From positions 5,270,001-5,334,000 of the forward strand of contig OZ024746.1 in NCBI GenBank assembly GCA_964016885.1: DNA of 64,000 nucleotides, read 5' to 3'. The stretch's first letter is position 1, and every line of letters starts with the position of its first letter. Under the pieces are notes generated by a model. The model was not told where the DNA came from and searched no databases. It saw only the letters and a list, made by a program, of their open reading frames with translations. The stretch comes from Eledone cirrhosa. Its lineage: Eukaryota. A program made the translations under genes and the position numbers. Below are positions 12,748 through 14,240 of the stretch, piece by piece.

Positions 12748-13342
12748 TACACAAATATAATTTCAACGAGATTGTATTTCGGCTGTGGTCAAAAACAAAG
12801 CGAAACGCAATTTTCGAGATATGCGGCAAGCGCTCAATGGACTAAAAGAAGATCAGAGCAATTAACATACGTTATAGAGGCCAAACAAACTGAAAACAGC
12901 GGTCATCGGTCATGAAGCTATCAGCCACCGGAGCCAAAAAAAACCGAAGCAAGCTAAACAGGTTAAACAAAAGAATTTACGTGGACCACCTGGAAATTGA
13001 TGGTATAATCCAGTGGGAGGTTTCTGTGACATCTAATTCAATTATACTGCCTGCCTTCATTGTAAGCTTTTGGTATAAAGATCGAACAGGGCTGCCATTT
13101 CATCAACAGGTTTTTTGTTCTCAGCCGGTGAGCGGGTTCCAATGCAATAGTAGTGTTGGAGTGATTAGCCCACGTGTTTACCCTGCAGGGGGAGATAACT
13201 CCGGTTTTGGCGGATGGATTCAGAATGTGTAAAATTATTGCAAGAATTGCAAAAAGCTGCACAAATCGAATTAAAGCTCTTGACAGGGTTGTTTTCAAAT
13301 AAACTTAAGCAATTAATCAGTCAATAGAATAGTCTAATAGAA
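12748..13342 (+). mobile_element. ~600-nt structured non-coding element, copy A
   Basis: Colinear with 13667-14240 and 55592-56185; TA-flanked; conserved stems; no shared ORF. Confidence 0.8.
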
Positions 13343-13539
13343 TATATATATATATATATATATATATATATATATATATATATATATATATATATATATA
13401 TATATATATATATATATATATATATATATATATATATATATATATATATATATATATATATATATATATATATATATATATATATATATATATATATATA
13501 TATATATATATATATATATATATATATATATATATATAC

Positions 13540-13607
13540 AAGGTTGACAGGGTTGTTTTCAAATAAACTTAAGCAATTAATCAGTCAATAGAATAGTCTA
13601 ATAGAAT
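13540..13607 (+). mobile_element. terminal fragment of the ~600-nt element
   Basis: Duplicates ~13279-13342 between (TA)n runs. Confidence 0.85.
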
Positions 13608-13666
13608 ATATATATATATATATATATATATATATATATATATATATATATATATATATATATATA

Positions 13667-14240
13667 TACACAAATATATATTACCGAGAATCGCATTTCG
13701 GCTTTGAAATTAGCGAAAAATAACTTCCGAGATGTGTGGCAAGCGCTCAATAATTCTGACGAACCAGAGCTACAACATACGTTAAAGGCCAAACACACTG
13801 AGACGATGGTTAAACAATCATCCGCACAACCATAGAAACGACCAAGTAATTCGGGTCAAACAAATAAAAAAATATGTGATTGAAAAATTTACCCGGACCC
13901 CTGGATGGTTGGTAAAATCCAGTATTTGGGTTTCTGCGACTCCTAAATCAAGTACTGTCCGCTTAGACAAATAATGTTAGTCTTTTGGTAATATGATTGA
14001 ACAAGGAAGTCACTTTCTCAACAGGTTTTAGTTCAAGTGCCAGGCAAAGGAATGACCGTTACCGATACCCACGTGGGGCTCGACAAGGGAGGCAACCCTT
14101 ATTTTTGGCGGATGAAATTCAGTATGTGTATATTATTGCAAAAATGCAAAATATCACAAAAGGAATTAAGCTCTCAACAGAATGGTTATAAGTTAACAAA
14201 AGCTATTCATCAGTCAATAGAATCAACTAAAATAATCAAG
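13667..14240 (+). mobile_element. ~600-nt structured non-coding element, copy B (most diverged)
   Basis: Shared blocks atttcggc, ggcaagcgctc, acccggacc, cttttggta, tcaacaggt, ttttggc, ttcagtatgtgta, atcagtcaatagaat in the same order. Confidence 0.8.

Follow-up and report, generated by a model that had tools for sequence, protein, structure and literature searches.

What kind of element holds no reading frame, keeps an RNA fold while its sequence changes and lies in several diverged copies within a single stretch of a cephalopod genome? The question arises in 64,000 nt of Eledone cirrhosa DNA (contig OZ024746.1, positions 5,270,001 to 5,334,000; hereafter the window), for which an earlier note, made from the sequence alone, had proposed a structured, non-coding and possibly retrozyme-like element mobilized in trans, with a ribozyme-like RNA. 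This general description is supported by our analysis. Indeed, three homologous copies lie at 12748..13342 (copy A), 13667..14240 (copy B) and 55592..56223 (copy C), with BLAST identities of 74% between A and C and of 69% between B and C, and no open reading frame of at least 120 aa occurs within them, in line with the claim that none is shared. The earlier note could not assign the element to a known family; this no longer holds, as its minus strand bears a divergent type I hammerhead and its insertions are built like those of Penelope-like elements and animal non-LTR retrozymes.

Insertion anatomy in the window and across the genome

All three copies have their RNA sense on the minus strand. 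Copy A covers unit positions 1-595, with its fixed end on the left, in a TA run, and a second A piece (13544..13606, minus strand) repeats A positions 533-595 with 100% identity over 63 nt, again within a TA run. Copy B, about 96% identical to its nearest relatives, sits inside the TA run between the two arms of A and is probably the later insertion. On the plus strand, parts of the truncated end of A recur in inverse orientation at 14253..14418 (14337-14418 corresponds to A 514-595 at 97.6%, and 14253-14326 contains shorter repeats), forming an inverted arm of the type described for Penelope-like insertions (PMC8557442). Copy C is one whole unit, followed head-to-tail on the minus strand by a partial second unit (56224..56342; positions 1-119, 119 nt, 94% identical to the first); A and B stop about 35-45 nt before the unit end. 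The unit had been put at about 630 nt; its real length is about 610-620 nt, copy C reaching 632 nt through a poly-C/poly-A expansion.

Several other repeats share the window. A 208-bp direct repeat (56359-56566 and 57111-57318, 98.6%), with CTGATGA near its right end at a TA run, is probably a hammerhead-bearing Penelope-type repeat, and a further hammerhead repeat is possible at 12280-12460, where a stretch flanked by TA contains CTGACGA and, further on, GAAA. The minus strand of 14668-14883 (also of 42208-42491 and 42600-43027) holds the 3' end of a Penelope-like family matching L114/L115/L126 and adjoins the TA run of copy B. A short repeat with a long near-perfect hairpin lies in TA runs at 55061-55286 and 41271-41383. 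A frameshifted, GC-rich stretch with reverse transcriptase and restriction-like endonuclease motifs (52702-54852; fragments at 1886-2178, 4841-5150 and 31388-31530) is probably a decayed CRE-type non-LTR retrotransposon, and 58558-64000 is taken up by a long, degenerate satellite that is built on trinucleotides and repeats about every 90 bp.

Beyond the window, in a (TA)n-rich host genome of 3.0 Gb, one exact internal pattern of the unit has 1,902 matches (control: 0) and the ribozyme pattern 5,388 (reversed control: 0). Three copies in 400 kb of evenly spaced genome stretches extrapolate to roughly 20,000 copies, with a wide error of about 5,000-65,000. Twelve subfamily consensuses, built from 132 full units and further loci, are 598-643 nt long and share 50-93% mutual identity; the unit is non-coding, and that of the young subfamily measures 615 nt. 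Lineages still more distant than these 12 exist. Among them, a far more divergent lineage (L433, L441, L442) carries the same ribozyme core, its predicted cut lying farther from the fixed end (about 290-300 nt). A stem spanning the tandem junction was considered and rejected, since it is not conserved among the consensuses. Contigs from sequencing runs, of DNA or of unstated kind, cover both units and are uninformative on expression.

Insertions follow a common plan. In 57 chains from pattern-anchored loci, the left end lies in a TA run and is fixed at unit position 1-7 (42 of 57), and the right end varies widely, between 89 and 1408 nt; copies form head-to-tail read-through partial tandems and, now and then, inverted arms. 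Taken as a set, these features are those of Penelope-like insertion: the 3' end is fixed, truncation at the 5' end varies, tandems are partial, arms may be inverted and the target is a microsatellite. Partial tandems, truncated arms in inverse orientation and insertion into (TA)n have been described as Penelope-like anatomy (PMC8557442). Head-to-tail multimers with one fixed end could also come from a non-autonomous rolling-circle DNA transposon of the Helitron or Helentron type, the plus strand of which would fold as single-stranded DNA, and the G-T lean of the terminal hairpin presented below would suit such an origin. Helitrons and Helentrons are recognized by TC..CTRR ends or subterminal inverted repeats, which the consensuses lack. 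Heavy variable truncation, inverted arms and (TA)n targeting also argue against this origin, and a conserved hammerhead core would have no role in DNA; we strongly disfavour it, to the point of giving it hardly any credence.

One locus deserves separate mention: in a two-armed Penelope-type insertion (L303:430-1563), the right arm enters a 125-bp junction-spanning fragment of our element without a TA spacer. This junction may be a template switch or an adjacent insertion, and we rejected it as evidence on the strand, which it cannot decide.

Predicted hammerhead fold of the minus strand

The copies are structured beyond chance. In six consensuses, both strands fold locally better than shuffles (z from -1.7 to -4.6), and five helices have at least three compensatory columns versus 0-1 in each of 20 column permutations. 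The motifs quoted in the earlier note are all present in the sequence, and its case for structure stands; as instances of covariation, however, they are of unequal value. GAACAA..TTGTTC and GCTC..GAGC are genuine conserved pairings, whereas several other quoted pairs are private post-insertion changes, absent from the subfamily consensuses. Indeed, AACCAT in copy B reads AGCCAT in the consensus, GGGGTT..AGCCCC in copy C corresponds to a consensus GCGGTT altered by the poly-C expansion, the ATAA/CTCC form in copy A is likewise private, and GGTGTC..GACACC in copy C stems from the mutation of an invariant ribozyme position, A14.

On the minus strand, 12 of 12 consensuses present the same succession of elements: stem I, UUGANRA, an extra A or C, a stem II domain of 73-78 nt, an extra A, GAA, and a stem III that begins with A15.1-U16.1 (positions in hammerhead numbering) and is followed by C17, at a predicted GUC cut site, and the second strand of stem I. 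This is type I connectivity, with three stems round a junction, about 140 nt overall and with a stem III insert of 24-32 nt. The consensuses were built without reference to the hammerhead motif, the S8 match being re-anchored, and yet U4 G5 A6, A9, G12 A13 A14, A15.1-U16.1 and H17 are invariant in all 12, the core positions being among the longest invariant runs of the alignment. The 3-8 pair always has U3, with A8 in 18 of 26 sequences and G8, a wobble, in 8 of 26. Before G12, an invariant extra A faces A or C, and stem II does not close directly onto G12 through a 10.1-11.1 pair; because of this bulge or mismatch, the motif is classed as a hammerhead variant and not as a canonical hammerhead.

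Copy B retains the variant intact (13891..14036, minus strand). It comprises a pseudoknot strand (14031-14036), stem I (14022-14026 with 13891-13895), the core UUGAGAA (14015-14021), the stem II domain (13936-14013) flanked by an extra A on each side (14014 and 13935), GAA (13932-13934), stem III (13897-13931) and C17 at 13896, with the predicted cut at 13895|13896. In copy A (12979..13120, minus strand; core UUGAUGA at 13100-13106; predicted cut 12983|12984), the hammerhead is probably weakened, as stems I and III have one mismatch each. That of copy C (55836..55976, minus strand; core UUGAGAA at 55956-55962; predicted cut 55840|55841) is predicted to be dead, since GAA has become GAC, with the loss of A14, and one stem III pair is missing.

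For a structural alignment, 24 rows were taken from the 27 of 37 loci matching the core pattern and copy B was added; as rows were picked by their core, core invariance is circular in these 25 rows, whereas the stems are not. Across the 17 named pairs, 95.5% of the cells are paired and 7 of the 17 show two-sided changes. None of 500 shuffles reaches this percentage or the score, and slid controls stay at or below 50.8%; the count of two-sided pairs taken alone is equalled by 38 of the 500. RNAalifold and single-sequence folding both return the same three-way junction unprompted, and the isolated ribozyme region folds no better than shuffles (z of -0.58 and -0.79). Stems I and II were also recovered in 22 of 26 further matches from the same genome versus 0 of 47 from metagenome (44) and viral (3) contigs; the latter, first taken as possible relatives, all lack the stems and were set aside as chance matches. 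Read in RNA sense, GAACAA..TTGTTC is a predicted pseudoknot of 4-6 bp, in which an internal loop of stem II pairs with the sequence flanking stem I on its 5' side. Its pairing is found in 23 of 26 sequences versus 19% of control windows, with a change from GAAC/GUUC to GGAC/GUCC, and is weakest (3 bp) in the youngest consensus.

Rfam misses the variant: searches returned no match for the copies and no ribozyme family at the gathering threshold or at E up to 10. A canonical CUGANGA occurs, on either strand, in only 2 of 12 consensuses and is not conserved; neither is a relaxed hammerhead core on the plus strand of the consensuses. Short likenesses to the motifs of the hairpin ribozyme, HDV, RNase P/MRP, telomerase RNA and group I/II introns fail across subfamilies. 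Thus, the absence of a canonical hammerhead reported earlier is literally correct, but a non-canonical one is present on the minus strand, and the suggestion of a large ribozyme-like RNA is right as to its ribozyme-like nature, though what we find is a strongly modified hammerhead and not a new large ribozyme class. As judged from sequence, the minus strand holds a divergent type I hammerhead for which cleavage is predicted.

The strand under selection was accordingly reconsidered. Deviations had been described as often G-U on the plus strand and as pointing to selection on a plus-strand fold; the three core stems instead show 53 G-U cells on the minus strand versus at most 8 A-C cells, and it is the minus strand that bears the hammerhead. 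The hairpin next to the fixed end, on its 3' side in RNA sense, at 56131..56216 in copy C with no strand assigned, is the most strongly covarying helix and, over 12 consensuses, its wobble pairs lean to the plus strand (GU 14, AC 6); in the far more divergent lineage (L433, L441, L442), they fall on the minus strand. By analogy with a studied Penelope-like element (PMC11167929), this hairpin is a candidate binding site for the reverse transcriptase, from which the plus lean does not follow. Whole-unit folding energy singled out neither strand, and no A-to-I editing asymmetry was found, the A>G and T>C rates being equal in 132 copies.

Signals on both strands could suggest a viroid-like replicon, selected in both polarities through RNA-to-RNA copying by a host polymerase and only occasionally retro-inserted. 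Such a replicon would account for both strands folding better than shuffles, for one hairpin leaning plus while the ribozyme leans minus, and for the stepwise, ladder-like divergence of the young lineage. However, Watson-Crick helices fold on either strand regardless, the fold is branched and not rod-like, the plus strand has no conserved hammerhead core, and the metagenome and viral contigs yielded no structured match. We therefore hold this origin to be very unlikely.

Insertion ends, tandem arrays and a candidate partner

Considering sequence, predicted structure and insertion anatomy together, we regard it as probable, with good confidence, that the element works as an animal-type non-LTR retrozyme. 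A tandem copy would be transcribed, its hammerheads are predicted to excise unit-length RNA, and this RNA would likely be ligated to a circle. A reverse transcriptase-endonuclease of a Penelope-like element, presumably of the Neptune/Nematis type, would then likely copy the RNA into nicked (TA)n DNA, starting at a single position within the unit, located 222-257 nt on the 3' side of the cut, which would become the fixed end. On a linear monomer, run-off at the cut would leave copies of about 230 bp; on a circle, continued copying would give copies of 1.0-1.4 units or long arrays.

The young subfamily offers the clearest view of such arrays. Its motif has 1,742 matches at 615-bp spacing, and 15 of the 16 young arrays read begin at one and the same base, the 16th beginning at an assembly gap. 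The four longest contain 13, 16, 16 and 18 whole 615-bp units, nearly all identical within and between arrays, and the hammerhead variant, again distinct from the canonical motif, recurs along arrays every 615 bp. Older arrays diverge from the youngest in ladder-like steps. The family is a real, abundant and recently active element. Some variants are specific to an array and common to all its units (27 in all four units of one array, 11 in all four of another), which fits repeated copying of one unit-length template, as from a circle. In one array, a variant is found in 5 of 13 units that are not adjacent; a single template cannot give this pattern, for which later DNA-level exchange or an assembly error is needed.

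The ends of insertions bear on the predicted cut. With all 48 ends, 19 of 42 fall within the 30 nt before the cut versus 1 of 23 in the next 30 nt. After removal of one subfamily with an internal TA seed and of four resuming loci, 33 of the 48 ends are kept, and the contrast is of 12 of 30 versus 0 of 18 (p = 0.0015); for ends on the second round along the unit, the counts are 20 of 33 before the cut and 3 of 13 after it. The stretch of 30 nt preceding the cut is AT-rich and, in one subfamily, seeds TA expansions; equally AT-rich windows further on received 0 of 10 ends. The ends of the youngest long arrays do not cluster at the predicted cut. In one subfamily (L194, L200, L262, L267, L268), a TA microsatellite has arisen repeatedly by expansion of an internal site that lies some 9 nt away from the predicted cut.

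Such a pile-up of ends would be expected if reverse transcription ran off its template at a cleaved 5' end; it may also reflect stalling at the folded domain. The latter belongs to a broader alternative, in which the unit would be a non-autonomous Penelope-like element, its hammerhead a structural relic or a protein-binding fold, its array templates linear read-through transcripts and its end pile-up the result of stalling of the reverse transcriptase at the fold or of AT-rich microhomology. The non-consensus core, the AT-rich stretch before the cut and the variant in 5 of 13 units are compatible with this alternative, as is the finding that hammerhead mutants left the in vitro insertion of a Penelope-like element unaffected (PMC11167929). 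Yet none of the catalytic positions varies across 50% divergence, although stems and loops change in sequence, the ends step at the scissile bond and not in other AT-rich windows, and array-wide variants fit a unit-length template. We thus judge a relic hammerhead unlikely, though less so than a viroid-like origin, and retain the retrozyme as our preferred explanation.

Which enzyme might copy the presumed circle? Elements with a GIY-YIG domain are many in this genome (150 scored), and none with extended homology to the unit was found among 40 such loci. One of them, L111, has an open frame of 938 aa with a reverse transcriptase (just under the Pfam cut-off), a CxxC linker and then GIY-YIG, terminal repeats on both sides that each carry a minimal U3-A8 hammerhead, and relatives about 98% identical. 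The fixed ends of L111 and of the young subfamily, internal junctions included, have 13 nt in common, in which the nearest ancestors of this subfamily show several differences; older subfamilies have only a loose end likeness, to the L091 family. The latter, an older relative of L111 with copies 85-93% identical, has a minimal hammerhead that a strict descriptor missed; read by eye, its core is of the U3-A8 type and its stem II is mismatched at the base. In the absence of extended homology to the unit, L111 is a candidate partner only. Other hammerhead families (L121:8061-9546, L134, L137, L168, L112, L114) have a U-U mismatch at the base of stem II, and one of them forms a tandem of about 490 bp.

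These observations lead us to a bolder proposal, which we put forward tentatively and consider possible but somewhat short of an even chance: the element would define a large, structurally distinct hammerhead subclass, with U3 facing A8 or G8, an extra A before G12 and a 75-nt stem II pseudoknot-docked on stem I, active in vivo; its insertions, in their thousands, would record both the cut and rolling-circle reverse transcription; and the initiation site of the youngest lineage would have been remodelled to that of an active Penelope-like partner, a host switch by mimicry. If true, such a subclass would be invisible to Rfam and to CUGANGA descriptors.

Comparison with known ribozyme-bearing elements

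Several features of the variant have precedents. A U3-A8 hammerhead was described in Cercyon of Schistosoma (Cervera and de la Pena 2014, PMC4209133), and U3-A8, an additional base following A9, a stem II that begins with mismatched U-U and pseudoknots between stems I and II are each already known (PMC4209133; PMC3088659; PMC11300833). Activity is known for a pseudoknot hammerhead with A:A and G:A pairs capping its helix (Perreault et al. 2011, PMC3088659; Zhan et al. 2024, PMC11300833). Nevertheless, A-A or C-A at the base of a long stem II together with U3-G8 does not figure among the variants presented in the parts of these last two papers compared here. The hammerheads of Penelope-like elements, as described in PMC4209133, are minimal, with a stem III that is palindromic or absent, and need dimers; in the present motif, stem III is extended and stable, stem II is very large, G12 is always preceded by an extra A, and some lineages have G8 opposite U3. 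The open literature, in its main texts, yielded neither a cephalopod ribozyme element nor this combination of core variants, although the supplements of PMC8557442 and PMC4209133 may contain related sequences. We found no precedent there for a hammerhead in which stems II and III are both very large, G12 always follows an additional A and, in some lineages, U3 faces G8.

Among Penelope-like elements, Neptune/Nematis-type elements and Naiads (Craig et al. 2021, PMC8557442) resemble our family in their partial tandems, inverted truncated arms and (TA)n targeting; unlike them, it has no open reading frame. Naiads, as presented there, are without canonical hammerheads and have an N-terminal endonuclease, whereas in L111 the reverse transcriptase comes before GIY-YIG. 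For a Penelope-like element of the anole, hammerhead cleavage was reported to be unnecessary for insertion in vitro (PMC11167929).

The closest counterparts are the animal non-LTR retrozymes, non-coding tandem units with type I hammerheads that occur as circular transcripts and for which mobilization by Penelope-like elements has been proposed (PMC7229834; 10.64898/2026.07.22.740005). Expression and circles have been seen for those of coral, mussel and axolotl, while for the present element they are predictions; they carry, as described, a minimal or canonical hammerhead, where here the core has U3, an extra base on both sides of stem II, large stems and a predicted pseudoknot. The natural sequence space of the hammerhead ribozyme is thereby widened, and whole abundant retrozyme families can escape current descriptors. 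Moreover, the in vivo cutting of retrozyme RNA at the hammerhead, long assumed, becomes testable, as insertion ends step at the predicted bond, and so does the copying of circles by a named Penelope-like enzyme, as the same genome offers a young candidate whose open reading frame is long and whose initiation site matches. In other respects, our family resembles the retrozymes described by Cervera and de la Pena (2020) and by Li, Clavereau and Pollet (2026): it consists of non-coding, low-GC tandem units with one type I hammerhead each, ranges from monomers to long multimers, and has a unit length within the 51-972 bp reported for the group.
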